DNA from: a virus
Reading direction: 5' to 3' (one strand)
DNA: 64,000 nt
IMG/VR virus record: IMGVR_UViG_3300046740_000358
Coordinates: 11,173 to 75,172 of that record
Shown here: piece by piece, positions 4,273-49,796 of the stretch
How positions within the stretch are numbered: position 1 is the first letter of the stretch
Layout: the number at the start of each line of letters is the position of its first letter
Position numbers and translations under genes: made by a program
The notes under the pieces: model-generated
What the model was told of the DNA's origin: nothing
Databases searched by the model: none
What the model saw: only the letters and a program-made list of their open reading frames with translations

Positions 4273-4315
4273 CGGGTCTCCTCCGTTCAGGGGACTTGCG
4301 GGTGAACCTGGAAAG

Positions 4316-18284: not shown

Positions 18285-20563
18285 CAGTATTCCTCGGCGG
18301 TGCTGAGGTTGCGGATCACTCGGGCGTTTTTGGTCTTGGCCTCGTCGCGGACCTGGGCGGCCACCCGCTGGGCGAACCGCTCGACGTCGGCGGGCTTCAT
18401 GGGATCGCCCTCGAACTTGAGATCGCCGAAGGTGAAGTGCTGGTCAATCTTGGTGTCGCCGCCGAGTTTGGACTTGACCAAGTCCAGCATCGCCTGGGGA
18501 GGAGCGTTGGCGGAGCCGCCGTAGGCCGCTCCCTGCATCCCGCCGACGCCGCCCAGCATGGAAGCGATGTCGATGCCGCTGCCCCCGCCGAACTTCCCGA
18601 ACATCTCCTGGAGGCCCGCGACCAGCCCGGTCTTCTTTTCGTCTGCCAGCGCCGACGGGCGGAACCCGGGGCCCTCGGCGGTACCAGCCGCCGGCAGCGC
18701 CCCGCGGGGGGCGTACGGGCTATTCCACGCCCCCTGGGGGCCGGTGTCCTGGCCAGGCAGGCGGACGCCGTCTCCCGCCGCCAGTTCCGCTTTCTCCGAG
18801 AACGTCGGCAGGGTCACCAGCCCGGTGGCGTTCATGGTCTCGGCGAAGGAGTTCCACGCGGCCTTCATCTTGGCCACGAGGTCGTCGAAGTGCGTTCCGA
18901 TCGACACGATGGCCGCGAGGATGGGTCCGAAGACCGGGATGTTCACCAAGAACGCGGCGAAGGACATCCAGTTCTCGCGCATGAAGCCGGTGACCGCCTG
19001 CCAGTTCTGCCACAGCAGGTAGACCGTCGCGCCGGCGGCCAGCAGCGCGGCGATCACCAGGTAGACAGGCGACGCCACCAGCAGGAACGCTGCGGCCGCC
19101 TGCAGGGACGCCACCAGCGCCGCCGCCTTGAATGCGATGAGCACGCCGGCCAACGTCGACACCACCGTGATGACGCCGACGATCGCCACCTGGGCGGCCG
19201 CGCCGAACTCGCTCCAGTGATCCTGGAGGTACCCGACGACCTTGATGGCGCCGTAGATGGCCGCGCCCAGCAGCAGGACCGGGGCGAGAATCCGCGCCAT
19301 GCTGAAAACGGCCGCGAGCGCCGTGCGCACGAACGCGAAGCGCAGCGCGGCCAGGCCCAGTACCAATGTCCCGAGCACGGTCTTGGCCAGCCACAGACCC
19401 GCCGGCCCGAGCTCGGTCACGATCATGCCGGTGACTGACTCCCCCCCCGTGTAGAACGTGTAGAGGTCCTCGGCGATCAGCCCGATGGCCACCAGCAGAG
19501 CCCCGGTGAAGAGGCGCTTGAGGTTCATCAGGCTGTAGACCAGCAGCCCCACGCCCTTGGCCACCTTCTCGAAGGCCAGCCCCGCCATCGCGAACCCCAA
19601 CAGGACCGCCGTCGCCTTCACCGCCATCATCGCGGTGTCCGACTTCAGGAACCACTCCACCAGCGCGGCCACACTCTCCACCGCCTGGGTGACCATACCG
19701 CCGATGCTGTTGCCGACATCGACGACCCGCTTCCCCAGCGCGGTCATCGCTCCGTCCGCCGTGAAGAACGCGGCGTTGAGCTTGGCGATCCCGCGCTTCA
19801 TGCCCTCGAACAGCACCTCGCCCCCGCGGCGGGTGAGCATCTTGGCTGCCGAGATGATCGCGCCCTTCATGGCGTCGAAACTCGAGGCGGACCGCTTCAG
19901 CATCGGGTCGAGCTTGGAGAAACTGGCCTTGAACAACTCGAGCCGCTCGGGAGCGGTCATCTTGTTGAAGGATTCCTGGGTCAGTTTCGCCTGCCCCTGG
20001 ACCTGACGCAGGAACGGCAGGAACCGCTTGAACAGGATGTTGATGCGGGTGGCGTGACCTTGGCCAGCGACGAACAATTCCTGCATCTCGCGGGCGGCCA
20101 CCTGGTGCGGCACCTTCAAGGTGTGCCCGATGGCGGCCAGCTTGTTGGTGAACTCGGTAATCTGCTCGACCTTCCAATCGGGCACGGCGTCCTTGATGAC
20201 CGGGAGCCCGCCGCGGAACATCTCGATGTATTCGTCAGCCTCGCCCGGGAGGAGCGCCGCATCACGGATGATCTGGTCCATCGTCGTCGCGGCTTCCTTC
20301 ATGCCCGCGTTGAAGTCGCTGGAGATGCCGAGGGCGTCGAAGAACCCGGCCAGCGCGATGGTGTTCTGCTCGTATTCGTCGCTGATGTTGGCGATCGCCT
20401 TGACGGCCAGCCCGCCCAGGACGGCGCCGGCGGCCGCGCCGTAGGTCAGGAGTTGCGTCGAAGCCTCCTCGGCTCGCTTCTTGAAGGTCTCAAGGCCGGA
20501 GAAGTCCGGCGCGAAGCCCAGGGCGATGAACAGGCTGTCGATGATCGTGCCGCCGACAGGCAT
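18284..20563 (-). CDS. tape measure protein
   Basis: 759 aa; IIDSLFIALGF N-terminus, hydrophobic/aromatic repeats; follows the chaperones. Confidence 0.9.
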   Translation of the reverse strand: MPVGGTIIDSLFIALGFAPDFSGLETFKKRAEEASTQLLTYGAAAGAVLGGLAVKAIANISDEYEQNTIALAGFFDALGISSDFNAGMKEAATTMDQIIRDAALLPGEADEYIEMFRGGLPVIKDAVPDWKVEQITEFTNKLAAIGHTLKVPHQVAAREMQELFVAGQGHATRINILFKRFLPFLRQVQGQAKLTQESFNKMTAPERLELFKASFSKLDPMLKRSASSFDAMKGAIISAAKMLTRRGGEVLFEGMKRGIAKLNAAFFTADGAMTALGKRVVDVGNSIGGMVTQAVESVAALVEWFLKSDTAMMAVKATAVLLGFAMAGLAFEKVAKGVGLLVYSLMNLKRLFTGALLVAIGLIAEDLYTFYTGGESVTGMIVTELGPAGLWLAKTVLGTLVLGLAALRFAFVRTALAAVFSMARILAPVLLLGAAIYGAIKVVGYLQDHWSEFGAAAQVAIVGVITVVSTLAGVLIAFKAAALVASLQAAAAFLLVASPVYLVIAALLAAGATVYLLWQNWQAVTGFMRENWMSFAAFLVNIPVFGPILAAIVSIGTHFDDLVAKMKAAWNSFAETMNATGLVTLPTFSEKAELAAGDGVRLPGQDTGPQGAWNSPYAPRGALPAAGTAEGPGFRPSALADEKKTGLVAGLQEMFGKFGGGSGIDIASMLGGVGGMQGAAYGGSANAPPQAMLDLVKSKLGGDTKIDQHFTFGDLKFEGDPMKPADVERFAQRVAAQVRDEAKTKNARVIRNLSTAEEY

Positions 20564-20826
20564 CAGTGCTTCTCCTTGGCTTTGCGCTGGCGCTCCATCT
20601 CGACCCGATACCTCCTATGGTACTCCGCTTCCTCGTCCATCAGTTCCCAGAAGTCCGCCAAGTGGTTGATGGTGTAGGTCCCGTCGAGGAGTTCCCTCCG
20701 GCTGCACAGCGGCGGGTCGCGCGCGATGACGCGCATGATTCGCCAGTCGATGTTGGCCGAGACGATCGGCTTGATGTCTACGTCAGGGGGAGCGGGCTCG
20801 AAGGCGAGTCCGCGTCGGAGAAAAAA
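20563..20826 (-). CDS. C-terminal (GT) part of frameshifted tail assembly chaperone
   Basis: -1 frame gives FLRRGLAFEP..IDWRIMR..ELLDGTYTINHLADF, ending at the TMP start. Confidence 0.7.
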   Translation of the reverse strand, partial: FFLRRGLAFEPAPPDVDIKPIVSANIDWRIMRVIARDPPLCSRRELLDGTYTINHLADFWELMDEEAEYHRRYRVEMERQRKAKEKH

Positions 20827-21287
20827 TCGCGGTAATTCTCCCGCAGAGCGGGGAGCAAGACCTGCCACACGAGTTTGGGCCGCCCGCCGAAGACGGTCTG
20901 AAACATGGCGCTGTCCGCCAAGGGGGCGTGTGAGGCGTTCCCCTTCCCCGGCTCCCGCTCGGCGGTGACGTGCGCGAACACCGTCTTGACGATGGCCAAG
21001 TATTCGTTCGGGTCTGCCGTCTGCAGGATCGTCGAGATGGCCTTGAGCGCGCTGGCGCCGCTGGCCTCGTCGGCAGAGAACATCTCCATGACCTGGGCCA
21101 GTGTCAACTTCCGGACGTCCCCCTGTTGGGAGGAGAACGCGATCAGGAGGCGAAAGGCCGTCTCCCCGATCTGCTTGACGATGCGAAGGGAAATGAGAAA
21201 GGACGTCTCCGCCGGCATCACGCCGAACGAAAACGTCCTCCCACCGATGGTCTCTTGGGGTGCGCTCATGGACACCAGCGTATCCAC
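20778..21287 (-). CDS. tail assembly chaperone
   Basis: Lies between tube and TMP; ends LRENYRDFFSD. Confidence 0.8.
   Translation of the reverse strand: MDTLVSMSAPQETIGGRTFSFGVMPAETSFLISLRIVKQIGETAFRLLIAFSSQQGDVRKLTLAQVMEMFSADEASGASALKAISTILQTADPNEYLAIVKTVFAHVTAEREPGKGNASHAPLADSAMFQTVFGGRPKLVWQVLLPALRENYRDFFSDADSPSSPLPLT
20820..20826 (-). other. programmed -1 frameshift slippery site T TTT TTC
   Basis: XXXYYYZ heptamer in GAT TTT TTC links the chaperone to the downstream -1 frame. Confidence 0.75.
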
Positions 21288-21314
21288 GAACGCTCCCCAT
21301 GGTCAAACCAGCCC

Positions 21315-21758
21315 CTACAGGTCGAAGATCGACGCCCCGCCGTAGGTGTGGTCGGTGCGCTCGATGACGAGGGTCCATTCCATGTCGCTGGGCTTCTCGC
21401 CGCGGCCGAAATCGGCGGGCTTCTTGATGTAGCCCACCGTCCCGATCGCCACGTCCTGGAGGGCCTGGTCCTTGGCGTAGAAGCGGATCGGGACGAAGGT
21501 CGCCGGCCCGCCCTCTTGGAGTTCGCACAGCGTCCCCAGGTAGGTGTTCGAAGCGCTGTCGGCGGCGAACTTGAAGGTCACCTCGCCGCTGCGATCGCGG
21601 CTGCGAAAGACGGTCATGCGACCGTCCGCCCCCACCTCGTCGCTGAATGAATCGGTGCGTCGCTTGACGGTGACGACGTCGTCGCCCTTGGCGAACCCCC
21701 CGAGCGTCACCCCGTTGAGGATCCACGTCCAGGAGGCAAAGTCATATGGCATTTTCAT
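21315..21758 (-). CDS. tail tube protein (DUF3277-like)
   Basis: YDF..GFAKGDD..VGADG..SGEVTF..SASNTYL; follows the sheath. Confidence 0.85.
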   Translation of the reverse strand: MKMPYDFASWTWILNGVTLGGFAKGDDVVTVKRRTDSFSDEVGADGRMTVFRSRDRSGEVTFKFAADSASNTYLGTLCELQEGGPATFVPIRFYAKDQALQDVAIGTVGYIKKPADFGRGEKPSDMEWTLVIERTDHTYGGASIFDL

Positions 21759-21788
21759 TGGTCAGGTCTCCTTGGAGGAAGGTCCGTT

Positions 21789-23279
21789 TCAGCGGTCGAA
21801 GACGAAGGTGATGGCCGCGCCGTGGAAGGCGCCAGCGCCCTTGGCGGCGATGGTGATGGGCGGGGTGATGCGGATCGCCCGGTCCGATACCGACTGAGTC
21901 GCCATCGGCTCCATGCGCAGGCGGTAGCCGGTCTTCATGAACTCGCCCTGGGTGACGAGGTTGGCGATCGAAGCGCTGAGCCACGTGCCGGGGGCGAAGA
22001 ACCCGTTTCTCACGAACTTCTCGCAGGCCGGGATCGCCCCCTGCAAGACCTGCTGGCCGCCCGCGTCGGTCTGCTTGACCTTGGTGGTTGGGGTCGCCAG
22101 CGCGGTGAAGACGCCGTTCTGGACCTCGGCCGAGAAGGCGTCGAGGCCAAAGCGCTCGTCCGAAAACACCCCGTCGGCCATCTTGCCGTTCTCGAGCTCG
22201 TTGAGCCCGGTCGCGCCCGGGGCCGCGCGGGTGACGTAGAAGTTCCCGTTTTTGGCCTTCATCGCCGCGATCTGGGTGGGGGTCAGGTTGCTCGCCGTGA
22301 CGCCCGGGAGCTGCTTGAACATCAGCGTCCCCATGCCGTCGATCGCGTTCAGGTTGGTCACCTGCTCGCGCGCCATCGCCGACACCGCCGCGTAGGGCGT
22401 CTCCTGGTAGAGCACGAACGTGTAGCCGTACGATGTCGCCTGGGCGTAGTACATCAGGTCGGTGGTCGACGCCGGGTCGTAGCAGGTGACGTCCGGCGTG
22501 GTGCACCAGAACTTGATCTTGTTGGTCTGGCAGAACGCCATGCAGTCCTTGTTGTCCTGCACGCTGTTCTGCTGGGGAATGGCCAGGCCGTACCAACCGG
22601 CATCGAGCGCCAGCGTGGCGGTCAGGCTGGCGGTCATCGACTCGATGGCGATGCCGTCGACCTTGCGGGCGCCCGTGGTCACGGTGATCTGCAGGAGCGC
22701 CGTGATGTCCACCGGGGCGCCGCCGCCGGTGGGAGCCACCGCGTACGACACGAGGCTGGTCGCGCCGGTGGTGGGGCTGTTGATGACGAAGCGCCCGTTG
22801 GTGAACGTGCACGTCGTCGAGGCGAGGCCCGCGGCGAGCTTGGTCTGAATCAGCGCCGCGACGGCCGCCATGCTGGCCGCGCCCGACAGGTTCAAGGCCG
22901 TGACCTGGATCAGGGTGGCGTTCACCGTGATGTCGAACCCGCCGTTGGTGATCGCGGTGTACGAGGCCAGCACCTGGGTCACGCCGCCGCTCAGCAACTT
23001 GCCCGACTGCGCGGTCAAGAACTGACGACCGATCTTGAACGGACCCGCCGGCCGCGGGATCTGCGCGTAGTACATGTTGGTCGCGAGGTACTCCTCGCTG
23101 GTCGCCGAGAAGCCCGCGGCGGTGGCGTCCGACGGCTGGGCGGTGATCAGCACCCGCGACTCGAGGGGAAGGACGGTGGACCGCCCGACGAACATGCCGG
23201 CGCCGAACCCCTGCACGCCGGGAGGGATCGCCGAGGCAAGCACGGTGACGGGGACGATCGAATCAAGGGTGACGCTCAT
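21789..23279 (-). CDS. tail sheath protein (DUF3383)
   Basis: 496 aa; SEEYLA, TLMFKQLPGV, KVKQTDAG and AGAFH. Confidence 0.9.
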   Translation of the reverse strand: MSVTLDSIVPVTVLASAIPPGVQGFGAGMFVGRSTVLPLESRVLITAQPSDATAAGFSATSEEYLATNMYYAQIPRPAGPFKIGRQFLTAQSGKLLSGGVTQVLASYTAITNGGFDITVNATLIQVTALNLSGAASMAAVAALIQTKLAAGLASTTCTFTNGRFVINSPTTGATSLVSYAVAPTGGGAPVDITALLQITVTTGARKVDGIAIESMTASLTATLALDAGWYGLAIPQQNSVQDNKDCMAFCQTNKIKFWCTTPDVTCYDPASTTDLMYYAQATSYGYTFVLYQETPYAAVSAMAREQVTNLNAIDGMGTLMFKQLPGVTASNLTPTQIAAMKAKNGNFYVTRAAPGATGLNELENGKMADGVFSDERFGLDAFSAEVQNGVFTALATPTTKVKQTDAGGQQVLQGAIPACEKFVRNGFFAPGTWLSASIANLVTQGEFMKTGYRLRMEPMATQSVSDRAIRITPPITIAAKGAGAFHGAAITFVFDR

Positions 23280-23291
23280 GGGCTTACCTCA

Positions 23292-23945
23292 TCAAGGGGT
23301 GATTGTTTTCGTGGTGACGCCGCCGGCCGGGTTCTCGACCGTGATGCCGGTGCTGCCGAGCGAAGCGAAGGTGGAGACGGGAGCATTCTCGGACGCGATC
23401 ACGGAGATGTACAGATCCACCTGCCCGCGGCTCTCGCGGTGGGCGTCGGCGATGCCCGACAGGTTGCGCGCCTTGCTGGCCCCGATGAAGCCGATGTTCG
23501 CCGCGCGCAGCAACTCCGCGAACGTGGTCAGGCGCAGGCGTAGGGGCAGCCGCTTCGCTCGGTCGTAGGCCGCCGTCGTGAAGACGGGCAGCCCCTCGTC
23601 GTCGGCCGCCGGCGCCTTGCCCCGAAAGAAATTGACCGACACGGTCAGGTACTGCTGGACCGTCACGGCCTCGAGCTCGGAGCCGTCCTCCTGGGTGGCG
23701 TTGACGGCCTCCGGGATCGCGGCGTCTTCGTTGTCGATGAACGTGAAGGTCGCGAACTCCTCGCCGACGTTCCCGGTCGGCGCGTCCTGGCCCGCCCACC
23801 GCACGCTGTTCGGCGCCATCTCCATGGCCGCCTCGATGATGTCGCCGATGGCGCGGCCCAGCCGGTCAGACCCGGGGACCTCGAGCCCGACGGGGGGCTC
23901 GCCGCCGTAGTCGGAGGCCCAGCCCTCTTGCCATGCGGTGGTCAT
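23292..23945 (-). CDS. tail terminator / neck protein
   Basis: VRWAGQDAP, VSVNFFRG and ESRGQVDL; directly upstream of the sheath. Confidence 0.7.
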   Translation of the reverse strand: MTTAWQEGWASDYGGEPPVGLEVPGSDRLGRAIGDIIEAAMEMAPNSVRWAGQDAPTGNVGEEFATFTFIDNEDAAIPEAVNATQEDGSELEAVTVQQYLTVSVNFFRGKAPAADDEGLPVFTTAAYDRAKRLPLRLRLTTFAELLRAANIGFIGASKARNLSGIADAHRESRGQVDLYISVIASENAPVSTFASLGSTGITVENPAGGVTTKTITP

Positions 23946-24244
23946 GCGGGAACCCACTTCCCCTCGCGGATGAAACCGTGATGCCCGCACGTCGTGCAGA
24001 GCACGGAGGGGGACAACGTCAGGGGCTCCTCGCTCTCGACGGCCCACGATGGCCTCGTGGTGGTGTCGTTGAGCGGGATGCGAAGGCGCACGTACCCAGA
24101 GCATCGCGCTCCGGCATTATCGTCATGCTCCTCGATGAGCCCGACCACCTGGCCCTCGTAGACCATGGGGATGAGCGTCACTCCGTGGCCGATGTCGATC
24201 TTGCCCTTCTTCTGGTTCTCCAGAACGAGGTAGTCGAGGCTCAT
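23942..24244 (-). CDS. DUF6527-like metal-binding protein
   Basis: W..EPLTLSPSVLC..CGHHGFIREGKW; ATGA coupled on both sides. Confidence 0.65.
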   Translation of the reverse strand: MSLDYLVLENQKKGKIDIGHGVTLIPMVYEGQVVGLIEEHDDNAGARCSGYVRLRIPLNDTTTRPSWAVESEEPLTLSPSVLCTTCGHHGFIREGKWVPA

Positions 24245-24609
24245 GCTGACCTCGGAGGCAAGAAGCCCTCGGCGACGGCGTAGGTGTACCCGTGGGCCTG
24301 CCACGCCTCGGCCTTCATGACCCGGTAGTGCTTGTCCCCGTCGATCACCACGTCCGACAGGACCGCGGCCCCGTCGCCCTTGCGGATCGCGGTGGCGCTC
24401 CAGATCTCCACCAGTTCCGTGGAGCGCTCGCCCTCGGCCATCTGCTCGATGGTCTCCGGCGACGCCGGCTGGATGATGCCCACGGCGGGGATCTCGTCGT
24501 ACCCCTGGACGCGGAACGCTCTCGAGGCGTCGAAGTCCCCGCGGGGTCGCTTGATCGTGAATGACCGGGCGAAGTCCGGATCGGTCATCATCTCCGAAAC
24601 GTCGATCAC
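24241..24609 (-). CDS. head closure/head-tail joining protein
   Basis: IDVSEMMTDPDF..GIIQPAS..EGER; position in the neck region. Confidence 0.75.
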   Translation of the reverse strand: MIDVSEMMTDPDFARSFTIKRPRGDFDASRAFRVQGYDEIPAVGIIQPASPETIEQMAEGERSTELVEIWSATAIRKGDGAAVLSDVVIDGDKHYRVMKAEAWQAHGYTYAVAEGFLPPRSA

Positions 24610-25058
24610 GGCGTCACCTGGTAGGTCACGGTCTGCAGCACTTGCGACGTGTCGATCAGGGGCTTGCTCGACCCCTTACGTCGGATGGTCGACGGGGCGT
24701 TGGGCACCCACGGCCCAGCCACGATCGCCCGCTGGACCTCGCTCTTGCCGTACTCGCCCAGCAGGCCCAGCGCGCGCGATGCCGCCATGCGACCGTCGAT
24801 CACGCCCTTCAGGTTGGCCTTGTTGAGCGCGCGGACCCCGGGCTGCGCCCGCTTGATGCCCGTGCGCAGCGCCGGCCGCTCCGGGATGGTCTCGGTCCCG
24901 AACTCGTTCCACGCGGCCACCTGAGCGACCGACGTCCCGTCAGCGTACTTCGGGCCCTGGGCCCAGCCGATCTTCACGGTGGCGTGCGCCAGCGCGCGCA
25001 AGCGAGCCTCCACGGCGCCCAGGCCGGGGAGTTTCGAGCTTTGTGCATTGGTGCGCAT
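24606..25058 (-). CDS. neck/tail completion protein
   Basis: VAAWNEFGTETIPERP, PNAPSTIRRKGSSKPLIDT. Confidence 0.8.
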   Translation of the reverse strand: MRTNAQSSKLPGLGAVEARLRALAHATVKIGWAQGPKYADGTSVAQVAAWNEFGTETIPERPALRTGIKRAQPGVRALNKANLKGVIDGRMAASRALGLLGEYGKSEVQRAIVAGPWVPNAPSTIRRKGSSKPLIDTSQVLQTVTYQVTP

Positions 25059-25060
25059 GG

Positions 25061-25447
25061 TCAACAGACCGGAGCCGCGAGCGTCGAGCCGCCGAAGACG
25101 AGCTCGACGAGGTAGGTGTACCGCTGGCCGAACCGGGTCCAGCCGTACGGGTTGTTCATGTTGGCCAAGATGACCTGGGCATCGCGCTGGACCAGCACCC
25201 GCCCGACTTGCTTCATCGTCTCGGTCCCGCTGGCGGCGCCGACCGCGCCGACGGTCGCCAAGATCTTGTTGGCCACCAGCCGGTCAGCTACCCAGTTGGT
25301 GACGCCCTCGACGTAGAAGGTGCCCCACTCGGTGACCGACAGGTAGGTAGCCGACGCGGTCAGAGCGGCCTGCACCGTCGGGTCCGGCCACTCCGTGACC
25401 GAATCGAACAGCGGTGTCATGGCCGCCCTGAATTCCGCGACGGTCAT
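25061..25447 (-). CDS. head-tail adaptor (DUF4054-like)
   Basis: MTVAEFRA..WPD..TRFGQRY. Confidence 0.75.
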   Translation of the reverse strand: MTVAEFRAAMTPLFDSVTEWPDPTVQAALTASATYLSVTEWGTFYVEGVTNWVADRLVANKILATVGAVGAASGTETMKQVGRVLVQRDAQVILANMNNPYGWTRFGQRYTYLVELVFGGSTLAAPVC

Positions 25448-25449
25448 GG

Positions 25450-25761
25450 TTACTTCTTGGGCTGCCCCTTGTCGGCTTCCTTGCCCTCGGTAACCGCCTC
25501 GACCACCAGTTGCGGGCGGCCGCGGTGATCGTTCTTCAGCCACGACGCCGTGACCGGGTGGCCCTTCATCCGCTCGATGACGGCCGAGTCGACCTCGACC
25601 TCCCCGGGCGTCTCGATGCCGACGCCGTCCATCCCCGTCCGAATCCCAAGGCGAGGAAATTTGATGAGCCCCGACGCCGCGCCCCCGGGAGCCGCCGCAC
25701 TGCTGACGCCCGGGAGGTCGAAGTCGTGCTCCGCGAAGTTCTTGACGATCACTTTTGCCAT
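25450..25761 (-). CDS. small protein downstream of capsid
   Basis: AAGGAG RBS; MAKVIVKN...HPVTASWL. Confidence 0.65.
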   Translation of the reverse strand: MAKVIVKNFAEHDFDLPGVSSAAAPGGAASGLIKFPRLGIRTGMDGVGIETPGEVEVDSAVIERMKGHPVTASWLKNDHRGRPQLVVEAVTEGKEADKGQPKK

Positions 25762-25874
25762 GGGTCGGTCTCCTTGAAGTCTGGTCTCAGGCGGCGGCCG
25801 AGGACATTCGCGACCGCCACCTGTACGAGATTGGGCGACGAGGCCCGGAGCCGTCAAACCGGCCCCGGCTCCTG

Positions 25875-27002
25875 CTACGTGGTGCCGTCCATGTAGTACA
25901 TGTTGGTGACGCGCTTCACCTCGACACCGGAGAGGCGGAACTCGCCGGGGACCTTGACCTTGGTGTTCTCGAGTTGAGGCGCCAAGTAGGCCAGCGGCAT
26001 CGGGATGTGGAAGACGAGGGTGTCTTCGTTGTTGACGTAGAACGTCGTGCGCCCCGTCGAGCTCGCGCCGGCGGTGGCCGCGGCGAAGATCGGGAGGATG
26101 GTCAACGGCTTGTTGGTGCTGGCCGTGTAGATGTTGTTCTCCTGGAGGAACTTCAGGATCGTGATGTTCGTCGAGTTCGCCGTGTTCAACGGCGTGACGG
26201 ACAGGTACTGCCAAGCCAACTCGGGCAGGCCGACGGTGTCGGGCATCACGTTGAAGCCCGAGTTCGCGTAGACCTTCTGCATCCCGAAAGCGAAGTCGGT
26301 CAGGATCTCCGCCACGGAAGCGGCGGTACTGCCGCCGATGCCGGCCGCGCCGGTCCAGTTCTTCGTCGAAGGGGTGACGGCCGACGTCACGCCCGCGTTG
26401 TTCAGGAGTCCCGTGAGGGCCTTCGGGGTGTCGCCCAGCAGGCCGACGCGGTTGCAGAAGCGCTGGTACGCCTGCACCGACGCCTGGAACCGGCGCTCAG
26501 ACAGCGGCGCCTTCAGCAGGGCCGTCGTCCGGATCTCCTGCTGCGTGAACATGTACCCGACCTCGGCGCCGTGGATGTTGAAGGTCTTCTCCGACCAGGA
26601 CACGTCGGCGTTGCCCGTGTCGTTGGCCTGAGAGTCAGCCCACTTGGCCTGACCGACCTGGTCTTCGATCTGGTAGCGGATCGAGGTTGCCGCGGGCCCT
26701 GCTTCGCCCGTGATCGGCAGGAGCCGCGTGTACTGCATCGGCTCGTAGTACCGGGGCAGGATCTTGGCCTCGGTGTACGCGAGTTGCGAGACGAAGAAGG
26801 CATAGCCTTCCGCCGCGTCACCCGCGCGCGGGCGCCGGCGCAGCATCGCCTGCTGCTCGGACGGGCTCCCGACCACGGTGTACAGCAAGGGCCGGAACAT
26901 GGCGTCGAGGGCTTCGACGCGGTCCTGGTTCACCCACGCTTCCTTCAACTCGCCCGGGGCAAGCTGCTCGTCGGCGACCAGCACTCTCTTCAGGTTCTTC
27001 AT
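25875..27002 (-). CDS. major capsid protein (DUF2184 family)
   Basis: FFVSQLAYTE, GLLNNAGV, TILKFLQENN, IPMPL and YMDG. Confidence 0.92.
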   Translation of the reverse strand: MKNLKRVLVADEQLAPGELKEAWVNQDRVEALDAMFRPLLYTVVGSPSEQQAMLRRRPRAGDAAEGYAFFVSQLAYTEAKILPRYYEPMQYTRLLPITGEAGPAATSIRYQIEDQVGQAKWADSQANDTGNADVSWSEKTFNIHGAEVGYMFTQQEIRTTALLKAPLSERRFQASVQAYQRFCNRVGLLGDTPKALTGLLNNAGVTSAVTPSTKNWTGAAGIGGSTAASVAEILTDFAFGMQKVYANSGFNVMPDTVGLPELAWQYLSVTPLNTANSTNITILKFLQENNIYTASTNKPLTILPIFAAATAGASSTGRTTFYVNNEDTLVFHIPMPLAYLAPQLENTKVKVPGEFRLSGVEVKRVTNMYYMDGTT

Positions 27003-27052
27003 TTTGGTTGTCTTTCGCTTTGTGGTTGAAGGTGGTGGACTGGACCGGCCGA

Positions 27053-27604
27053 TTAGGTCGTGACGCGACCGCGGACGCCGAGGCCCTGGACGAGGAGACG
27101 CGCCAACGCGCCCGACGCCACCGTGTCGAGGTACTTCGAGTTCAAGAGAACGATGCGGCCCGTGGTGGCCACGCCGCCCTTGCTCGAGGCGAAGGCTCCG
27201 GCGGTGGCGTTGCCGGCGCCGCCCGCGGTGATGATCAGGCCCTCGTCGCCTTCGCGAACGGCCTCAGCGACCTGGACCCAGATGCAGCCCTCGATCAGGT
27301 ACGGGACGTTCTGGTACTGGGCGTACGACACCACGCCCGCCACCGAAGATGGCGCCACGATCGCGTTGCGAACGGAGATGCCCGCGTAGCGATCGCCGTC
27401 AGCCGCCCAGGGCTTGACCTGCTGGTCGGTACCAGCCGCCGGCGCCGCCGCTCCCGTCGCGGCGATTGCCACGCCGAAGTCGATGCCCGTCGCGCTGCTG
27501 TTGATTCCCGTGAGGACCCGCGCCGGGAACTGCGCCGAGATCATACCCGCGTAGGCGATCTCGAATTCCCGTCCGCCAGCCGTTGCCAAAGTCGCAAGTG
27601 CCAT
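27053..27604 (-). CDS. capsid decoration/cement protein
   Basis: AYAGMI..IDFGVAI..GISVR..EGCIWV; between protease and MCP. Confidence 0.75.
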   Translation of the reverse strand: MALATLATAGGREFEIAYAGMISAQFPARVLTGINSSATGIDFGVAIAATGAAAPAAGTDQQVKPWAADGDRYAGISVRNAIVAPSSVAGVVSYAQYQNVPYLIEGCIWVQVAEAVREGDEGLIITAGGAGNATAGAFASSKGGVATTGRIVLLNSKYLDTVASGALARLLVQGLGVRGRVTT

Positions 27605-27661
27605 TGCTCATTCTCCTTGTAGTGGGGCCCGTTGTCCGTTTCGTTTCGTGGAGCGCGGGCC

Positions 27662-29011
27662 CTACTGCCGCGCCTCTTCGAGAACCGCTTCCGCCTCGGC
27701 GACCTTGCCCAGCCGGTGCAGCCGGTTGGCCTCGGTGACCGCATCCATGCCGGTGAAGCGCGGGGGCTTCCCGGCCTTCTGCGGCGCGCTGGTCGACGTC
27801 TCGCCGGCGCCGGCGCTGCCACCGCCAGCCAGCGCGGCGTCGCGGGCGCGGACGTCGGCGTCGTTGGCGCTGGCGTCACCCGTTCCGCGGAGGCGCTTGG
27901 CGATCGCGGCCGTCGTCGAGAACGTCGCGGTCACCACCTCGGCAGGAGCCTTGTCGAGCGCCACGGCCCCGAGGCCAGCGGTCACGATCGGCTTCAACTC
28001 TTCATCGTTCGCCATGATGGCCCCCAGCACCTCGAGGCGGATCGCGGGGACCGTCTTCCCCTTGCTGTCGAAGTCCTTCACCAAGATCATCGCGTCGCCG
28101 ACCACGGAGGTTCGTTCGATGGCGGCGAGCTCGACCAGGGCGGGGATGCCGTCCAGTTTCTTCTTGGCCTCGTCCAGCGCCGCGTCGGTCGCGCGCTTGG
28201 CGGCCTCGGCCGTGGACAACTTGCCCTCGGCAGCGTCGGCGCGCTCCTTCTCCATGTTGCGGCTCTTGGTCATGGCGTCGTGGGCCATGTAGCAGTCCTG
28301 CAGGCCGGTCATGTGACGGTCGTAGGCGTCCTGGACGTTGGTGACCTCGTTCTCGGCGACAGTGAACGAGAACCCCGGGACGGTGATGTCTCCGATCTTC
28401 TTGTCCTTCACGGTGATGCGCATGCTGGTCTCCTTGGTTGGCTGGGTCGGGTTGCGGTCCGCGATTCGAAGGGCGGGACCGCCCCGAGCCGCATCAACGA
28501 TCGCTACGTGGTTGCCTGTGATCCCTCGCTGGATGCCGTCGTACGCCTGGCCGTTGAACGTGCCAGGCGTCATGTCGAGGTCGAAGTCGTACCCGCACGA
28601 AAGCTGTACGGTGCCCTCTTTCTCGACGACGTCGATCGCGGTCTGGTCGCGGATCAGCAGCACGGCGGCGGTGGTGTCTCCGGCTGGCCGGACCTCGTGG
28701 ACGTCGCCAGCGGCCACGCGCTTCCACTCTTTCGAGTCCACGCCCTTGGTCGGGTGCGTGACGGTGAGGGTGGCGCGCTCGAAGCTGGCCAGCGTGTCCT
28801 TCGAGAAGACCTCCGCCCGGGGGCGGAAGAGGCGGACCACGCGGTCGGGATCGCCGTCCGTCAGCCCGAGCTCGCGTGCGCGGTACGGCTGCACGTTGTC
28901 GGCCGTCGAGATCAGAGCAGGCGCAGAGAGGAATCCCTCGCGCGTGCGCGTCCGCTGGCTGGCGGTGCCGCGGAGATCCCACGTCGACAGGTCGACGACG
29001 GTGATTTTCAC
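27662..29011 (-). CDS. prohead protease/scaffold (DUF2213)
   Basis: REGFL, RPRAEVFS, TVTHP, QLSCGY and NHVAIVDAARGG, then a coiled-coil scaffold. Confidence 0.9.
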   Translation of the reverse strand: MKITVVDLSTWDLRGTASQRTRTREGFLSAPALISTADNVQPYRARELGLTDGDPDRVVRLFRPRAEVFSKDTLASFERATLTVTHPTKGVDSKEWKRVAAGDVHEVRPAGDTTAAVLLIRDQTAIDVVEKEGTVQLSCGYDFDLDMTPGTFNGQAYDGIQRGITGNHVAIVDAARGGPALRIADRNPTQPTKETSMRITVKDKKIGDITVPGFSFTVAENEVTNVQDAYDRHMTGLQDCYMAHDAMTKSRNMEKERADAAEGKLSTAEAAKRATDAALDEAKKKLDGIPALVELAAIERTSVVGDAMILVKDFDSKGKTVPAIRLEVLGAIMANDEELKPIVTAGLGAVALDKAPAEVVTATFSTTAAIAKRLRGTGDASANDADVRARDAALAGGGSAGAGETSTSAPQKAGKPPRFTGMDAVTEANRLHRLGKVAEAEAVLEEARQ

Positions 29012-29334
29012 GCGGCCCCCTTCGGGACTTCGTTCACGGCGTCTTCGGCGGACCTCTGGATCGCGTCGGCGCGCGGAGAGTTCACGATCGCAGCGCGAAT
29101 GCCCGTCAGCGCCCGGAGGGCACCGCCCGCATCCACCGCTTCGTTGGCCGCCTGTCGGATTTCATCCAATCTCGGGTACGAATGAGCAAAGGAGGACGCC
29201 GCCAGACGCCGAGCGCCCGCAATGATCCCGTCGTACTGCTCGACCTCTATGCCGATCACCTCAAGGAGGCGGCCAGTGCACGGATCGGCAAGCCACTTCT
29301 CCCACTGCGCGGGCGTGATCTTGAACTTGGTCAC
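29008..29334 (-). CDS. hypothetical protein inserted in head module
   Basis: GTG start with GTGA coupling on both sides. Confidence 0.55.
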   Translation of the reverse strand: MTKFKITPAQWEKWLADPCTGRLLEVIGIEVEQYDGIIAGARRLAASSFAHSYPRLDEIRQAANEAVDAGGALRALTGIRAAIVNSPRADAIQRSAEDAVNEVPKGAA

Positions 29335-30236
29335 GCGGCCTCGCCCTCGCCGAACTCGTCCGGCAGATCGCCGAGGTTGATGATCGGGCGCGCGCCGCAG
29401 CGGCAGTTGATGTCCTCGCCCGGGTGGACGTGATCGCCATCGACCAAGGGGCGCGCATCCCACCGGCACCGCTGGCCCTCCATGTCGAGGTGGGACTTGC
29501 GCTCGCGCTGGTCCAGCACGCCGGCCCAGGTGTACTCCTCGATCCCCAGCGACGTCTGGCGGACCTCATTGAAGGCCGCGTTCATCTTCGAGGTCTGGTC
29601 ACGGGCGATCAGGCGAGCCCGGCGCTCGGTGATGTGGCCGATCTCGACGAGATCCTTCGCGAGGTCTTCCCAGCGCTGGCCGTCCACCCAGGCCCGCGTG
29701 ACGGCGTTTCGCACCCGGCCGAGGTAGCGCTCCGGGATCGTGGTGATCAGGTCGGCGGCCGCCTGGGCGGCGTCGCGCATGGCGGGAACGATGGCATGGC
29801 CGATCGCGCTCGAGGGCTTCAGCAACTGCGAGACGTCCACGCGCACCGACTCGAAGATCGCCTTGGTCAGGCGCTCGTCGACGTTCGCCAAGTTCTTCTG
29901 GACCGCCAGCGCCGCGAGGTATTCGGCCTGCGCGCGGGTGTTGCCGATCTGGGCCGCCAGCGCGTCGAGGCGGCGTGTCCCGTGTCCCGGGAGGCTCGAC
30001 CGCGGGCGCGGCGCCGCATCCCATGCGTGGGAGGGCTCCGCGAACATGGCCCGCAGATCGGCGATCGCGGCGGCGCCGGCGACCGTCATCCGCTTGACCA
30101 GTTGCAGGAGTTCCCAGCGCAGCCAGATCTCGCTGGCCATGCTCCTTGAGATCGCCCGCAACCGCCGCTCGCGGTTTCGCAGCCGCGCCACGTGCGGGTG
30201 CGGCAAAACGAAGTGTCGGATCAGGGCGTGAGGCAC
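29331..30236 (-). CDS. head morphogenesis protein (Mu gpF/SPP1 gp7 family)
   Basis: RARLIARDQTSKMN, YTW..DQRERKSH and HPGEDINCRC. Confidence 0.9.
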   Translation of the reverse strand: MPHALIRHFVLPHPHVARLRNRERRLRAISRSMASEIWLRWELLQLVKRMTVAGAAAIADLRAMFAEPSHAWDAAPRPRSSLPGHGTRRLDALAAQIGNTRAQAEYLAALAVQKNLANVDERLTKAIFESVRVDVSQLLKPSSAIGHAIVPAMRDAAQAAADLITTIPERYLGRVRNAVTRAWVDGQRWEDLAKDLVEIGHITERRARLIARDQTSKMNAAFNEVRQTSLGIEEYTWAGVLDQRERKSHLDMEGQRCRWDARPLVDGDHVHPGEDINCRCGARPIINLGDLPDEFGEGEAA

Positions 30237-30246
30237 GGCTCGCGCA

Positions 30247-30276
30247 ATGATAGAGGCACCGTCCGAGGCGCCTCAA
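30247..30276 (-). promoter_or_regulatory. putative late promoter TTGAGG-N18-TATCAT of head-tail operon
   Basis: Same architecture as 49767-49796. Confidence 0.55.
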
Positions 30277-30291
30277 TGCACGGGACGTGCC

Positions 30292-30480
30292 TTATGTACG
30301 TACAACGGGAGGCAAGGCGAACGCTTTCAGGGCGGATTCGATCGCGTCTGTCAGCGTCATCTCCCGCGCGCGCGCTGCCTTTTCGGCCGCTTTTCTGACG
30401 TCGACAGGGATCCAGACGTTCACGCGGACGTAGTTGCCGCCCTTGCTCCGATCGATGGTTTGCCGAGACCGTCGCGCCAC
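30292..30480 (-). CDS. RHH-like DNA-binding protein, leaderless
   Basis: VRVNVWIPVDVRKAAEKAARAREMTLTDAIESAL; TTGACG-N17-TCGGAT-N7-GTG upstream. Confidence 0.65.
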   Translation of the reverse strand: MARRSRQTIDRSKGGNYVRVNVWIPVDVRKAAEKAARAREMTLTDAIESALKAFALPPVVRT

Positions 30481-30516
30481 TCCAAGGATCCGACACCGTT
30501 TTCGCCCCGTCGTCAA

Positions 30517-32170
30517 GGCGGGTTACCATGACGTCCATGGCCACATTCTGGGATCGGGTGTTCCGCCGCCAACCTACAGCCGACGCGAGCTCCCTGGCTC
30601 CCCGGGCCCCCAGTGACGCGATGCTGGCCGCCATCGGGCGCGACAGCGCAGTGGCAGCGACGGCGCCGAGCCGCCCTGGCGTGTGGGACGGGATCCAGAA
30701 CTGGGCCGCCGGCATCGGTGCCGGTCCCGACAAGCGCCTCGGGAATGCGTTCAACCCGATCGCGTTCCTGACCAGGCAGGAGTGCGAGGCGTACTACAAC
30801 GGCGACTGGGTGATGGCCGCCGCGGTGGACAAGCCCGTGGAGGACATGACCAGGAACTGGCCGACCCTCGTGTGGCCGGGCAAGGACAAGGACGAAGCGG
30901 CAACCAGCGCGCTCGCGGACGTAGAGGACGAACTGCAGATCCGCGAGCACGTCGTCGAGGCCATGACCTGGGGGCGACAGTTTGGCGGCGCCGCCCTGAT
31001 CCTCATCATCTCGGGTGAGGATGACTGGTCGCTCCCGATCGGGTACAAGCGCGGCGCCATCGTCGCCCCCGGGACGCAGCCCAACTATGACGCGATCGGC
31101 GTTGGGGATCTCGACCTCGTCTACCCGGTAGACCGCCACCGCCTTGCCCCCACCGGCATGGCCGACAACGCGCGCCGCGATCCCAGGACGGGCAAGTCCA
31201 ACCAGAACTTCGGGCAGCCGCTGGCCTACAGCTTCACGGACGAGGCGGGCATCAGCGAGTACAACGTCCACTGGTCGCGGGTGATCCGCTTCCACGGCAA
31301 GCGCCTGTCCCGATACGACTGGTGGCGGAACGGCCGCTGGCACGCGAGCGTGTTCCAGAAGATTCAGACCGACGTGATGGACTATGCCGCCTCCCGCGCT
31401 TCGACGGCGACGCTGGGCCTCGAGCAGGCGGTGGACATCCTGAACATCCCGGGGCTCGCCGAGAAACTGTCGACGCCCCTGGGCCGCACGCAGGTGATGG
31501 ACCGCATCGCCTTCGGCGCGAACCTCAAGGGGCTCAACCGCGTCTGGCTGCTGGACGGCGGCAACAAGACCGTCAACCGTGACCCCGAGATGTACTCCCA
31601 GAAAAAGGTCGACTACAGCGGGTCGGCAGCGGCGTTGGAAAGTTGGATGTACATCATCAGCGGCGCGACGGGCGTGCCGGTCACGCGGCTATTCGGGCGC
31701 TCCCCGGGCGGGCTGAACAGCACCGGGGACAGCGACATGAAAAACTACCGCGAGCAATGCGCGAACGGGCAACAGACCGACATGCGCCCCGCGCTGCTGC
31801 GCCTGTACGAGGTGGTGATTCGCAGCGCCATCGGCTACATGCCCGACGACCTCAAGATCGTGTTCCCCCCGATCGACGATCCCAGCCGCTCGGAGGCGGC
31901 CGAGATCTTGGCGAAGGAAGCGACGGCCTACAAAGCCTTCGTCGACATGGGGATGCCCCTCGGGATCGTCATGCGGGAGTTGAAGTCGAAGGGAACCTCG
32001 TTCACGACCCTCGAGGACGCCGACGTCTCGGCCGCAGCGGACCTCGACAAGCAGGACGCGGAGCTCGCCAAGGCGGGCGCGAAGGCGCAGGCGGCGGCGT
32101 TCAAGAAGGGCGAGGTACCGGGGGCGCCCGGCAAGACGAGGCCGGCGCCGGCGGAGTAGGGTCACCCGGC
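30517..32170. repeat. imperfect inverted repeats GGCGGGTTACC (30517-30527) / GGTCACCCGGC (32160-32170) abutting portal ATG and TAG
   Basis: 9/11 match, read directly. Confidence 0.6.
30528..32159 (+). CDS. portal protein (DUF1073 family), inverted relative to its operon
   Basis: AVDKPVEDMTRNW, WGRQFGGA, VHWSRVIRF and IPV/VPVTRLFGRSPGGLNSTGDSDMKNY. Confidence 0.92.
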   Translation: MTSMATFWDRVFRRQPTADASSLAPRAPSDAMLAAIGRDSAVAATAPSRPGVWDGIQNWAAGIGAGPDKRLGNAFNPIAFLTRQECEAYYNGDWVMAAAVDKPVEDMTRNWPTLVWPGKDKDEAATSALADVEDELQIREHVVEAMTWGRQFGGAALILIISGEDDWSLPIGYKRGAIVAPGTQPNYDAIGVGDLDLVYPVDRHRLAPTGMADNARRDPRTGKSNQNFGQPLAYSFTDEAGISEYNVHWSRVIRFHGKRLSRYDWWRNGRWHASVFQKIQTDVMDYAASRASTATLGLEQAVDILNIPGLAEKLSTPLGRTQVMDRIAFGANLKGLNRVWLLDGGNKTVNRDPEMYSQKKVDYSGSAAALESWMYIISGATGVPVTRLFGRSPGGLNSTGDSDMKNYREQCANGQQTDMRPALLRLYEVVIRSAIGYMPDDLKIVFPPIDDPSRSEAAEILAKEATAYKAFVDMGMPLGIVMRELKSKGTSFTTLEDADVSAAADLDKQDAELAKAGAKAQAAAFKKGEVPGAPGKTRPAPAE

Positions 32171-33601
32171 GTTCGGTCCGAAGGCGTCGAAGATGGACGA
32201 GGGCCCCTTCGCGATGTTCCAGCCGTTCGACATGGCATCCACCTGGTCGTCGTGGGCGTCGCCAACGCCCGTGAACTTCGAGCACTCGTCCAAGAACTTC
32301 CCCAGCCATTTCGGGGCGTCCTTCAGTTCGAAGGCGGGCACCAGCAGCCGACCGATGTTCCAAGCTGCGGCGGCCGGCTGGGCGCGGGTGAACTTGTCGC
32401 CGATAGGGACCACCTCGACGATCCGCTCGACGCCAAGTTCTCGGAGCATCTGCGGGATCGCCAGGAACGCCCCCACGCACTCTACCCCGATGGGGGTCTG
32501 CCCCCACTCCTCCTGGATGGCCAGCAGGTCACGCACGAACGCTGGGATCGTCTTCTGCTCGCGGTAGACGTAGCGAACGTAACCGATGATGTAGCGGCGG
32601 CCGTCGTCTTCGACGACATCCCGGATCGACATGACCACCACCGCGCTGTAGTCGGCCGATGTCCTTTGGCTGGCAGCGGGGTCGGACATCAGGATGAGAC
32701 GACACCCCTCGAAAGACGTTGTCGCAGGATCGTAGTAGTGCGCCTCTCCGAATACGGATCCGCCGCGTGGGCGGGGGGCGCCCTGGTAAAGGGAGGCGAA
32801 CGCGAACTCTCCGAGATCTTCCTCTCGTTCCTCGAGCTTCTTGAGCGGGTAGAGTTCGGGCCACAGCGCTTCGCCGGGCTGACGGTTGAGTGGATCGTCC
32901 TTCTCGGCGATGGCCGACAAGTTGATCACCTTCCAGCCCTCGCGCTTGGAAAGGCGCCCGATCAGGTCGTCTTCATGCCAGCGGGTGTGGATGACGAACA
33001 CCGACGCGCCCTCGAGCCGGGTCAGCGCCACCGTCTTGAACCAGTCGTCTACTTTCTCACGGAATACCTCGCTGTAGGCGTCAACCGGGCCCTTGAATGG
33101 GTCGTCGACGACCAGCATGCCCTTTATGCGCTGGCCCGTGAGGCCCGATCCGATGCCGCCGGCAAGCAGGCCACCTCCCTGCGTGGTGCGCCACTCGCTC
33201 TTGTTGTCGGTTGACTTCGAGATCTTGATCCCAGCGCGCCCGGCGAGCTCGCGCGCCAGCACGCTTTTCGAATGCGCCTGCTGGGAGTTGTAGGAGAAGT
33301 AACCGTTCGGGTCGGACGGGTGCCGGGACAACCACCAAGCGATCGCGTTCACGAACAGCGTGGTCTTGGCGTGTCCCGGGGGAAGCGAGATCAGGACGCG
33401 GACGGGCTCGAGTTGCGCGCGCTCAAGTTCCGCGATGATGGGGTAGAGGTGCCGCGGCGCCGGGTGGTGCGGGGACATCCGCGCGATGAAGTCGCGAAGC
33501 GACTCCCCGCCGCTCATCCCCTCCAAGCATGTCAGAAGTTCGTTCTGCTCAGACTCAGAGAGGGTCGCCCACTCCTCAGGTGTCAGATCCGGAATGTCCA
33601 T
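32162..33601 (-). CDS. terL: terminase large subunit
   Basis: PPGHAKTT (Walker A variant), LVVDDP (Walker B), TRWHEDDL, YQGAP and HDDQVDA. Confidence 0.95.
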   Translation of the reverse strand: MDIPDLTPEEWATLSESEQNELLTCLEGMSGGESLRDFIARMSPHHPAPRHLYPIIAELERAQLEPVRVLISLPPGHAKTTLFVNAIAWWLSRHPSDPNGYFSYNSQQAHSKSVLARELAGRAGIKISKSTDNKSEWRTTQGGGLLAGGIGSGLTGQRIKGMLVVDDPFKGPVDAYSEVFREKVDDWFKTVALTRLEGASVFVIHTRWHEDDLIGRLSKREGWKVINLSAIAEKDDPLNRQPGEALWPELYPLKKLEEREEDLGEFAFASLYQGAPRPRGGSVFGEAHYYDPATTSFEGCRLILMSDPAASQRTSADYSAVVVMSIRDVVEDDGRRYIIGYVRYVYREQKTIPAFVRDLLAIQEEWGQTPIGVECVGAFLAIPQMLRELGVERIVEVVPIGDKFTRAQPAAAAWNIGRLLVPAFELKDAPKWLGKFLDECSKFTGVGDAHDDQVDAMSNGWNIAKGPSSIFDAFGPNAG

Positions 33602-34040
33602 CCGGCTTCTTTGTTCGAGCCTTGGCCCGTGCGATCAGTTCTGCCGCGCGGTCGCGCTTCTCCGCGGAACTCATCATCTGCACTTGGGCGATGGACAGGG
33701 GCGCTCCGTCCGGGCCAGCGACTTCGATCTTGCGAGGACCCGTGACGTCCATCGTCTCGAAGACCATCTCGATCGACGGCTCGCGGCCGAGGAGAGCGTT
33801 CTTGTACAGCGACGCCATCACGTTCTCGACACGGGGGACCTTGCGCGATCCGCTCTTGTCGGTGATGTCCTGAGCATCTGCAGCGAAGTAGTCCTGGACC
33901 TTTTGGCGCCAGTTCACGCCGGTCTTTCCGAGTGGGTTGAGCACCTGGCCTGGCTTGATGGGCCGTAGATTGGCGATCCGCCGCTCACGGGCCTCCGGCG
34001 TCTCCGTCCTCTTGCGCCGCGTCTTGGGTTGCCGTGCCAT
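33576..34040 (-). CDS. terS: terminase small subunit
   Basis: GGAGG RBS; NLRPIKPGQVLNPLG and KIEVAGPDGAPL; directly upstream of terL. Confidence 0.75.
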   Translation of the reverse strand: MARQPKTRRKRTETPEARERRIANLRPIKPGQVLNPLGKTGVNWRQKVQDYFAADAQDITDKSGSRKVPRVENVMASLYKNALLGREPSIEMVFETMDVTGPRKIEVAGPDGAPLSIAQVQMMSSAEKRDRAAELIARAKARTKKPDGHSGSDT

Positions 34041-34130
34041 CGTTTCGGTGTCTCCTCCCGCCCATGATACCCTGAGACCTTGACACCCCGTCAATCTGAC
34101 CGGGGGAACCTCACGTGAAGGAGCGCAACC

Positions 34131-34241
34131 ATGGCGACGAAGAAGGCGAAGAAGACCGGGGCGAAGGGCAAGAACGGAAAGACGGGCGGCGGCAAGGGCG
34201 GCAAGCGTGCCGCGGGTGGTGGCGGCAAGGGCGGGGGCTAG
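34131..34241 (+). CDS. 36-aa Lys/Gly peptide ending GKGGG (not in ORF track)
   Basis: AAGGAG RBS at 34118-34123; MATKKAKKTGAKGKNGKTGGGKGGKRAAGGGGKGGG*. Confidence 0.75.
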   Translation: MATKKAKKTGAKGKNGKTGGGKGGKRAAGGGGKGGG

Positions 34242-34252
34242 ATAACCCTGGA

Positions 34253-34282
34253 GCCTCCCTCCTTTTGATTCAGGAGGGGGGC
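34253..34282 (+). terminator. hairpin between the two peptide genes
   Basis: GCCTCCCTCCT-loop-AGGAGGGGGGC, 11-bp stem with one G-U pair. Confidence 0.5.
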
Positions 34283-34296
34283 ACCCGAGGCACGCC

Positions 34297-34485
34297 ATGC
34301 CAACGAAATCCGGGATGCCCACGGCTGCTGAAAATAGGGCCGGGAACGAGTTCTTCAGAAAGAACGCGCTGAACAACGCCAAAATGCGCGCGCGGTACGC
34401 GGCCCGGAAGGCAGCAGCCGGAAAAGGCCGGGGCGCCAAGGGCGCGAAGCGCTCTGGCAAGTCCGCAGGCAAGGGTGGGGGCTGA
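34297..34485 (+). CDS. 62-aa basic peptide ending GKGGG
   Basis: GAGG RBS; ...GKGRGAKGAKRSGKSAGKGGG*; stop abuts the next gene's GTG. Confidence 0.75.
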   Translation: MPTKSGMPTAAENRAGNEFFRKNALNNAKMRARYAARKAAAGKGRGAKGAKRSGKSAGKGGG

Positions 34486-49766: not shown

Positions 49767-49796
49767 AGGATAGGGCCGGGGGCTCGGACCCCTCAA
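49767..49796 (-). promoter_or_regulatory. putative late promoter TTGAGG-N18-TATCCT-N7-ATG
   Basis: Matches the head-operon promoter at 30247-30276. Confidence 0.55.

Follow-up and report, generated by a model that had tools for sequence, protein, structure and literature searches.

A portal gene reversed within an otherwise co-linear head-gene block is a fixed layout in a group of uncultured high-GC phages

In tailed-phage genomes, the one-strand order of large terminase (terL), portal and head genes ranks with the best-conserved features, and annotation and prophage-finding tools rely on such an order. What, then, is to be made of a genome in which the portal gene alone is read in the opposite direction? 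The question is raised by a 64,000-nucleotide stretch of viral DNA (hereafter the window, with positions counted from its first base), which comprises bases 11173–75172 of the 75,172-bp IMG/VR virus record IMGVR_UViG_3300046740_000358, a complete genome with direct terminal repeats and a GC content of 66.5%. A sequence-only reading of this locus had proposed that the portal was flipped between short inverted repeats, either by a recent, fixed micro-homology inversion or as an invertible switch. Our analysis indicates that the portal is a fixed, heritable single-gene inversion inside the co-linear block of small terminase (terS), terL, portal, gpF, protease, cement and capsid genes, that it is neither a switch nor an assembly artefact, and that the layout is found repeatedly among related uncultured high-GC phages whose head genes are of the E217/Pam3 type. 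With a probability of roughly 0.6, the layout is inherited and the 11-nt repeat at the portal ends is a coincidence of the portal ribosome-binding region with the last terL codons.

The portal, the repeat at its ends and the neighbouring packaging and head genes are as follows.

30528–32159, plus strand: portal, 543 aa, intact (PF06381, E = 9e-67, profile positions 2–356 of 357; phrog_146, E = 7e-91; third-codon-position GC content 0.91)
30517–30527, no strand assigned: GGCGGGTTACC, left arm of an inverted repeat of 11 nt with imperfect match, abutting the portal ATG
32160–32170, no strand assigned: right arm of the repeat, GGTCACCCGGC, abutting the portal TAG and covering the last two codons and the stop of terL
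32162–33601, minus strand: large terminase terL, 479 aa, here called type A (PF03237/PF17289)
33576–34040, minus strand: small-terminase-like gene, 154 aa, with the Shine–Dalgarno sequence GGGAGGAG (weak DUF5681 match, E = 7e-4, below the Pfam cut-off)
29331–30236, minus strand: MuF-like head morphogenesis protein (gpF), GTG start (PF04233, E = 1e-19; phrog_324)
27662–29011, minus strand: DUF2213 head maturation protease/scaffold (E = 3e-47; phrog_530)
27053–27604, minus strand: cement/decoration protein of the E217 gp24/Pam3 gp6 type (PF22758, E = 1.8e-15)
25875–27002, minus strand: major capsid protein (PF09950, E = 1.8e-54; phrog_264)

The portal, terL, gpF, protease/scaffold, cement and capsid genes were named by Pfam and PHROGs, and all but the portal lie on the minus strand. 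Judged as coding by third-codon-position GC content (GC3), the confident genes from 17628 to 33601 include a single one on the plus strand, the portal. Its TAG (32157–32159) is separated by 2 bp from the terL stop, which reads TCA on the plus strand (32162–32164), and the two genes lie tail-to-tail, exactly as had been described from the sequence. The E217/Pam3-type head module is complete, with the PF06381 portal, MuF, DUF2213, PF22758 and PF09950 genes adjacent to one another and each above the Pfam gathering cut-off. The terS-like gene is assigned weakly, by its position. The longest open reading frame (ORF) upstream of terL, 33576–34472 on the minus strand, encodes 298 aa and is probably over-extended, and the 154-aa call follows from a promoter, a strong Shine–Dalgarno sequence and an in-frame ATG at 34040.

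Is the reversal peculiar to this genome? About 190 loci with related portals were drawn from GTDB genomes, IMG/VR and JGI metagenomes, and their terL, gpF, protease, cement and capsid genes were located by tblastn. Six of them have a solitary reversed portal flanked on either side by minus-strand genes, namely L002, on a contig of a Pseudomonadota metagenome-assembled genome, L082, L083, L089 and L193, all from IMG/VR, and L162, from a JGI metagenome. These are independent assemblies from different metagenomes. In each, the plus-strand portal is read against minus-strand terL, protease and capsid genes, and gpF and the cement gene also lie on the minus strand wherever found (gpF was not found in L089, the cement gene was not scored in L193 and the L162 contig ends inside gpF). 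Pfam confirms that terL is downstream and convergent in L002, L082, L083 and L089. The portal stands head-to-head with gpF or, in L089, with the gene for the protease/scaffold; at its other end, the portal and terL frames overlap tail-to-tail by four bases in L162 and L083, and a few small minus-strand genes lie between the two in L002, L082 and L089. The reversed portals are intact, full-length PF06381 proteins, 31–45% identical to the window portal and across the reversed lineages, with L002, L082 and L162 71–73% identical to each other. The portal is co-oriented in all other loci with an identifiable neighbour, about 150 of the ∼190.

Two peculiarities of these portals may be recorded here. 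That of L193 (6902–9286, plus strand) is 794 aa long and carries a C-terminal PF18823 'InPase' domain (E = 1e-29), a fusion also listed for P0027 and P0031. In L002, L082, L162, L089, P0003 and P0004 the portal C-terminus is extended by a conserved tail of about 45 aa (GGW.VYSEG...KRLA.VEYFKN); the tail has no Pfam match, is absent from the window portal and from the canonical loci L163 and L198, and may resemble DUF2188.

Could the segment nevertheless be an active switch, flipping within the phage population and toggling portal expression or terL coupling by means of a host recombinase or the short repeats? Inverted repeats do lie exactly at the gene ends, and both portal orientations occur among related phages. 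However, a search of all 75,172 bp of the genome for the serine and tyrosine recombinase families PF00239 and PF00589 found nothing at E ≤ 1, the controls being positive; the earlier reading had recognised no invertase in the window. The arms are 11 nt long with 2 mismatches, far short of the crossover sites of known recombinases (about 26 bp or more). The relatives are each fixed in a single orientation, and neither the six reversed loci nor the canonical kin have an inverted repeat above chance at the portal ends. Turning off an essential virion gene would, moreover, bring the phage no obvious benefit. The comparison with relatives that the sequence-only reading had proposed as a check therefore counts against a switch and against a recent event, the orientation being common to six relatives and the repeats not being conserved.

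The available assemblies bear both on the switch and on the further possibility that the assembler set the portal segment in the wrong orientation, a concern that arises in that the genome is a metagenome assembly judged here from contigs. The stretch was located in one public run, probably that of the source soil metagenome, and an independent Logan assembly of this run gave one 74,601-bp contig in which 29500–33200 is reproduced with 0 differences at a depth of 38. At this depth the Logan assembly contains no strand-changing joint or second contig at either portal junction, although contigs drop rare variants. A joint at 32254/32965 was disregarded, as its 23-nt side, at 90% likeness, comes from another organism. 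The single orientation argues against a switch, and the perfect agreement inside so long a contig argues against an artefact, as do the six other assemblies from other samples with the same layout and the fact that all three genes at the junctions are intact. Repeats of 11 nt are also far shorter than any assembler k-mer, which again counts against misassembly. Taken together, an active switch is very improbable and an artefact more improbable still.

A fixed inversion leaves the repeat itself to be explained. The reverse complement of the right arm, GCCGGGTGACC, matches the left arm at 9 of 11 positions, in agreement with the earlier reading; the repeat ends at 11 nt without extension, its longest exact run is 5 nt and its left arm falls within the portal ribosome-binding region. 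A match of at least 9/11 in exact register is found in 3.5e-4 of random placements in the genome, and the portal is the sole gene above 5/11 in that register among the 65 confident genes of the genome. At any offset, the chance of at least 9/11 is 1% inside 15-nt flanks and 8% inside 30-nt flanks, and the 3.2-kb region holds 415 imperfect inverted pairs of at least 10 nt. The repeat is a real genome-wide outlier, though short. That re-inversion would restore an ATGA overlap between terL and portal was likewise reproduced in silico: inversion of 30524–32163 yields a terL of 481 aa ending ...GPNAGLP*, only 2 aa longer than the present 479 aa, with a 4-nt ATGA overlap onto the portal ATG, and the re-inverted (opposite) junction would read terL-...TTACCATGA...-portal.

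The claim that the gene was flipped exactly from start to stop holds for the first ATG (30528) and the TAG, but not if translation starts at the second ATG (30537), as alignment with relatives suggests. The codon aligned to the first ATG is Ile in the closest relatives, and the first Met common to them aligns with the second. The true start could thus be 30537, 9 nt downstream of the repeat. The source gene call begins further in, at Met32 (P0001, 512 aa).

These features could be accounted for by a lineage-specific micro-homology inversion, in which illegitimate recombination between the 11-nt inverted sequences flipped a co-oriented portal that then became fixed, leaving the repeat as a footprint. 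Such an event is possible, although we think it unlikely. It draws on the exact register of the repeat, unique among the 65 genes, and on the 4-nt overlap regained at a cost of two residues in terL, overlaps of this length being common in the genome and found between the terL and portal matches of canonical distant kin (e.g. L042 and L045). It is weakened by the fact that no repeat survives at any of the six other reversed loci, that the arms are short, imperfect and each embedded in functional sequence (the ribosome-binding region and the terL stop), that the repeat was found after looking at the portal gene only, and that the ATGA argument loses force if the second ATG is the true start. Related genomes that otherwise match the window in gene order do have the portal the other way round; short inverted homology at both breakpoints is seen in the window and in none of the six other reversed loci. 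The more specific proposal, that an ancestral portal was coupled to terL (...GCC GGG TTA CCA TGA) and was flipped after the split from the other reversed lineages, is in our view similarly doubtful. From the recent, fixed micro-homology inversion that had been suggested, the fixed inversion stands; a recent date and a micro-homology origin are possible.

The closest relatives offer a comparison of the junctions. They form a 90% cluster of portals that are 71–75% identical to the window portal: P0002, on a 12,076-bp NCBI contig; P0044, on a 21,203-bp NCBI contig; and P0043, on a 74,505-bp NCBI/Logan contig that also encodes the small protein P0042 and the terL P0128. P0043 (648 aa) is an over-extended gene call, with 100 additional residues that come from translation of the 300 nt preceding its portal. 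This upstream stretch shows no resemblance to window proteins in any frame. Its origin as the antisense of P0042 was ruled out by a codon-compatibility test, validated by recovering the known antisense overlap in the window, and an alternative frame of the C-terminus of terL P0128 was ruled out as well; amino-acid composition gave no frame or strand for the stretch. The terL of the same relative ends IFDAFGSTAPT*, compared with IFDAFGPNAG* in the window. Since the upstream stretch and the terL tail both differ, the two junctions of the window are not conserved in its closest known relative, an observation that favours a micro-homology event confined to the window lineage. Searches of IMG/VR for exact peptides of the portal, and of the small protein divergent from it, turned up nothing closer.

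How old, then, is the reversed state? L163, L197, L198 and L200 are fully canonical, with the order terS-terL-portal-gpF-protease-cement-capsid, and their portals and capsids are 55–69% and 60–75% identical, respectively, to those of the reversed L162, L002 and L082. In a portal tree rooted on canonical outgroups, the first three ingroup branches are all reversed (the window with P0002; L083 with L193; L089), and the reversed clade of L162, L002 and L082 is nested beside the canonical L163 group, so that the reversed lineages form a basal grade and one nested clade. The approximately unbiased (AU) test rejects a single clade of all reversed portals (log-likelihood difference 90.6, p = 3.8e-5), and parsimony requires three orientation changes. 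Portal orientation has changed at least twice in this phage group, and one early flip with later reversions explains the pattern equally well as several independent flips. On either account, the gene was precisely inverted on more than one occasion. Reversal is widespread across the group and may be its ancestral state. Repeated changes of orientation lend some support to a micro-homology inversion in the window lineage; the basal grade of reversed lineages counts against it, an old flip with reversions being as parsimonious as four separate flips. A wider variant would make portal orientation a recurrently toggled character, with precise inversions of the gene fixed repeatedly. Either selection would favour the reversed state, portal dose or timing being set by tail-to-tail transcription against terL or by uncoupling from it, or the window phage would stand near one micro-homology event whose repeat can still be seen. 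This variant is also rather unlikely. Third-codon-position GC/AT skew, considered as a clock of the time spent on a strand, tracks the coding strand in all genes and is uninformative.

The boundary between terL and portal has an eventful history of its own. Three terL types, only ∼20–23% identical to one another, are found in the group: type A in the window, L162, L197, L198 and L200, type B in L002, L082 and L163, and type C in L083 and L089. A terL of each of the three types opposes the portal in the reversed layout. The canonical L163 and L198 have portals that are 99.8% identical and protease and capsid genes that are 96–97% identical, but terL genes of different types (∼22% identical). 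The two loci are identical from the last terL codons onwards, which places the crossover within the 3′ end of terL. In L197 and L200, terL and portal are separated by inserts of 0.7–1 kb. Three unrelated types of terL and the insertion of small genes mark the boundary between terL and portal as a hot spot of recombination. The gpF of L163 is split over two frames (tblastn pieces 3855–4274 and 4276–4704), by a frameshift or an assembly error.

A reversed portal also has to be expressed, and the predicted signals and the small gene around it are the following.

34064–34094, minus strand: predicted sigma70-like promoter TTGACG-N19-TATCAT, followed by GGGAGGAG, before the terS-like/terL pair
30247–30276, minus strand: sigma70-like promoter TTGAGG-N18-TATCAT, the predicted head operon promoter, 10 nt upstream of the gpF start
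30514–30520, plus strand: Shine–Dalgarno-like AAGGCGG, 7 nt before the portal ATG
30292–30480, minus strand: small conserved basic protein, 62 aa (source call), divergent from the portal with 47 nt between the starts

The motif TTGAGG-N18-TATC[AC]T occurs twice in the window, at 30247–30276 and, before a fibre gene, at 49767–49796, compared with 0.00 occurrences expected. At gpF and the fibre gene the -10 elements end 7–10 nt before the start codon, a spacing that suggests very short or absent leaders. Among the reversed relatives, a head-operon promoter like that of the window was found only in L089, where a promoter-like TTGAGG-N17-GACCAT at 5041–5069 on the minus strand lies directly upstream of the first head gene and has a -35 hexamer identical to that of the window promoter. 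On the plus strand, no sigma70-like promoter was detected upstream of the portal, even at a lenient threshold, and no terminator was found between portal and terL, terminator-like sites being at chance level. The residues EKAG, read in frame upstream of the portal in the relative P0043, could be encoded by AAGGCGGG. Rfam identified a tRNA at 12121–12192 and nothing else in the window.

In the proposed scheme, the minus-strand units that flank the portal would each run from their own sigma70-like promoter (34094 for terS-terL and 30276 for gpF onwards) and, having promoters of their own, would not depend on read-through across the portal. The portal would be monocistronic, with AAGGCGG serving as its own ribosome-binding site. 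Since no sigma70-like portal promoter was found, its transcription would have to start at an unrecognised site, probably a weak or activator-dependent upstream promoter in or near the small divergent gene. With no terminator between portal and terL, we infer that their transcripts overlap in antisense, and such an overlap could hold portal or terL output down.

The small protein lies between the gpF promoter and the portal and has homologues on two other metagenomic contigs (P0041, 73%; P0042, 66%). Its predicted fold is a β-hairpin and two helices (pLDDT 62). It has no Pfam match and no PDB match, and its NCBIfam match, to YlcI/YnfO, is at E = 0.045. A ribbon-helix-helix assignment, guessed by eye, was dropped, being unsupported by Pfam, NCBIfam, the predicted fold or PDB.

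Several observations weigh against inheritance combined with a chance repeat. The two arms coincide, in exact register, with the ends of the only reversed ORF, with the 3.5e-4 chance and the uniqueness among 65 genes given above. A tidy ATGA on re-inversion has, by our estimate, about an 8% chance given the repeat; register and ATGA together come, as a rough estimate, near 1e-3 under chance before allowing for the post hoc search, and are hard to dismiss as pure coincidence. The window junctions are not conserved at 71–75% portal identity, given the different upstream 300 nt and terL tail of the P0043 relative. An old, adapted layout might be expected to have a portal promoter, and the lack of a recognisable one in the present orientation would fit a lineage-specific micro-homology inversion. 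The promoter and antisense parts of the expression scheme are, further, ones that we infer from sequence, and the contig data leave room for rare inverted molecules. Even so, inheritance of the reversed layout remains our preferred reading, at the probability stated at the outset.

The existence of this group implies that the portal needs neither co-transcription nor translational coupling with terL. The reversal is stable over deep divergence and has outlasted exchanges of the terminase, and its state has changed more than once. Between the reversed L162, L002 and L082 and the canonical L163, L197 and L198 there is a natural comparison, in which tuning of a low-copy virion protein by convergent transcription could be sought. 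The locus also illustrates that the attractive 'switch' reading of short repeats is best answered by looking at relatives. A full-text literature search found no published description of a lone reversed portal.

How does the arrangement compare with known systems? In invertible segments such as Mu G/Gin, P1 C/Cin, e14 Pin and Salmonella Hin, a dedicated serine invertase is encoded next to the segment, the crossover sites span ∼26 bp or more and a population contains both orientations. The genes affected are those of tail fibres or flagellin, the orientation deciding which genes are expressed. The window segment resembles such systems in being bounded by inverted repeats, but differs in that it has no recombinase, arms of 11 nt at 9/11 and one orientation seen. 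Fixed micro-homology inversions in phage and bacterial genomes offer a second parallel, a one-step inversion at very short inverted sequences followed by inheritance of the new gene order. Unlike ordinary events of this kind, both breakpoints would here need to lie only a few bases from the ends of a single essential gene, and the same outcome recurs in related lineages, a pattern of which the literature search found no account for a portal gene.

Within the same PF06381 lineage, the cultured Iodobacter phage phiPLPE and Edwardsiella phage PVN06 and Caudoviricetes sp. MW202455 have portals 39–50% identical to the reversed L002 portal, and the uncultured L163, L197, L198 and L200 carry, in addition to such a portal, the MuF, DUF2213 and capsid genes. 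In contrast to the window, terS, terL and portal are co-oriented in all of these. Opposite-strand blocks of small genes lie between the canonical portal and head-protein genes in phiPLPE (L201, 5993–7549) and PVN06 (L202, 3619–4149 and 5160–6816). The portal flanks tolerate reversed insertions in the wider group.

The closest precedent for a portal read against the head genes is that of the P2-like phages. In P2 the portal and large terminase form one operon, and the late units Q-P and O-N-M-L diverge from a shared intergenic promoter region. Gene tables of the P2-like phages (Peduoviridae) place the portal (Q) and terminase (P) genes next to each other on one strand, opposite the scaffold gene O, in a layout that is fixed across the family and has a portal of the PBSX type (PMC3091744). 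As in those phages, the window portal is read against the scaffold and capsid genes, in diverging units and in a fixed layout. Unlike the PBSX-type portal, however, it belongs to PF06381, and unlike in P2, terL stays on the capsid strand and converges on a portal that is reversed alone, as in all the reversed relatives; in the window the gap between the two is 2 bp.

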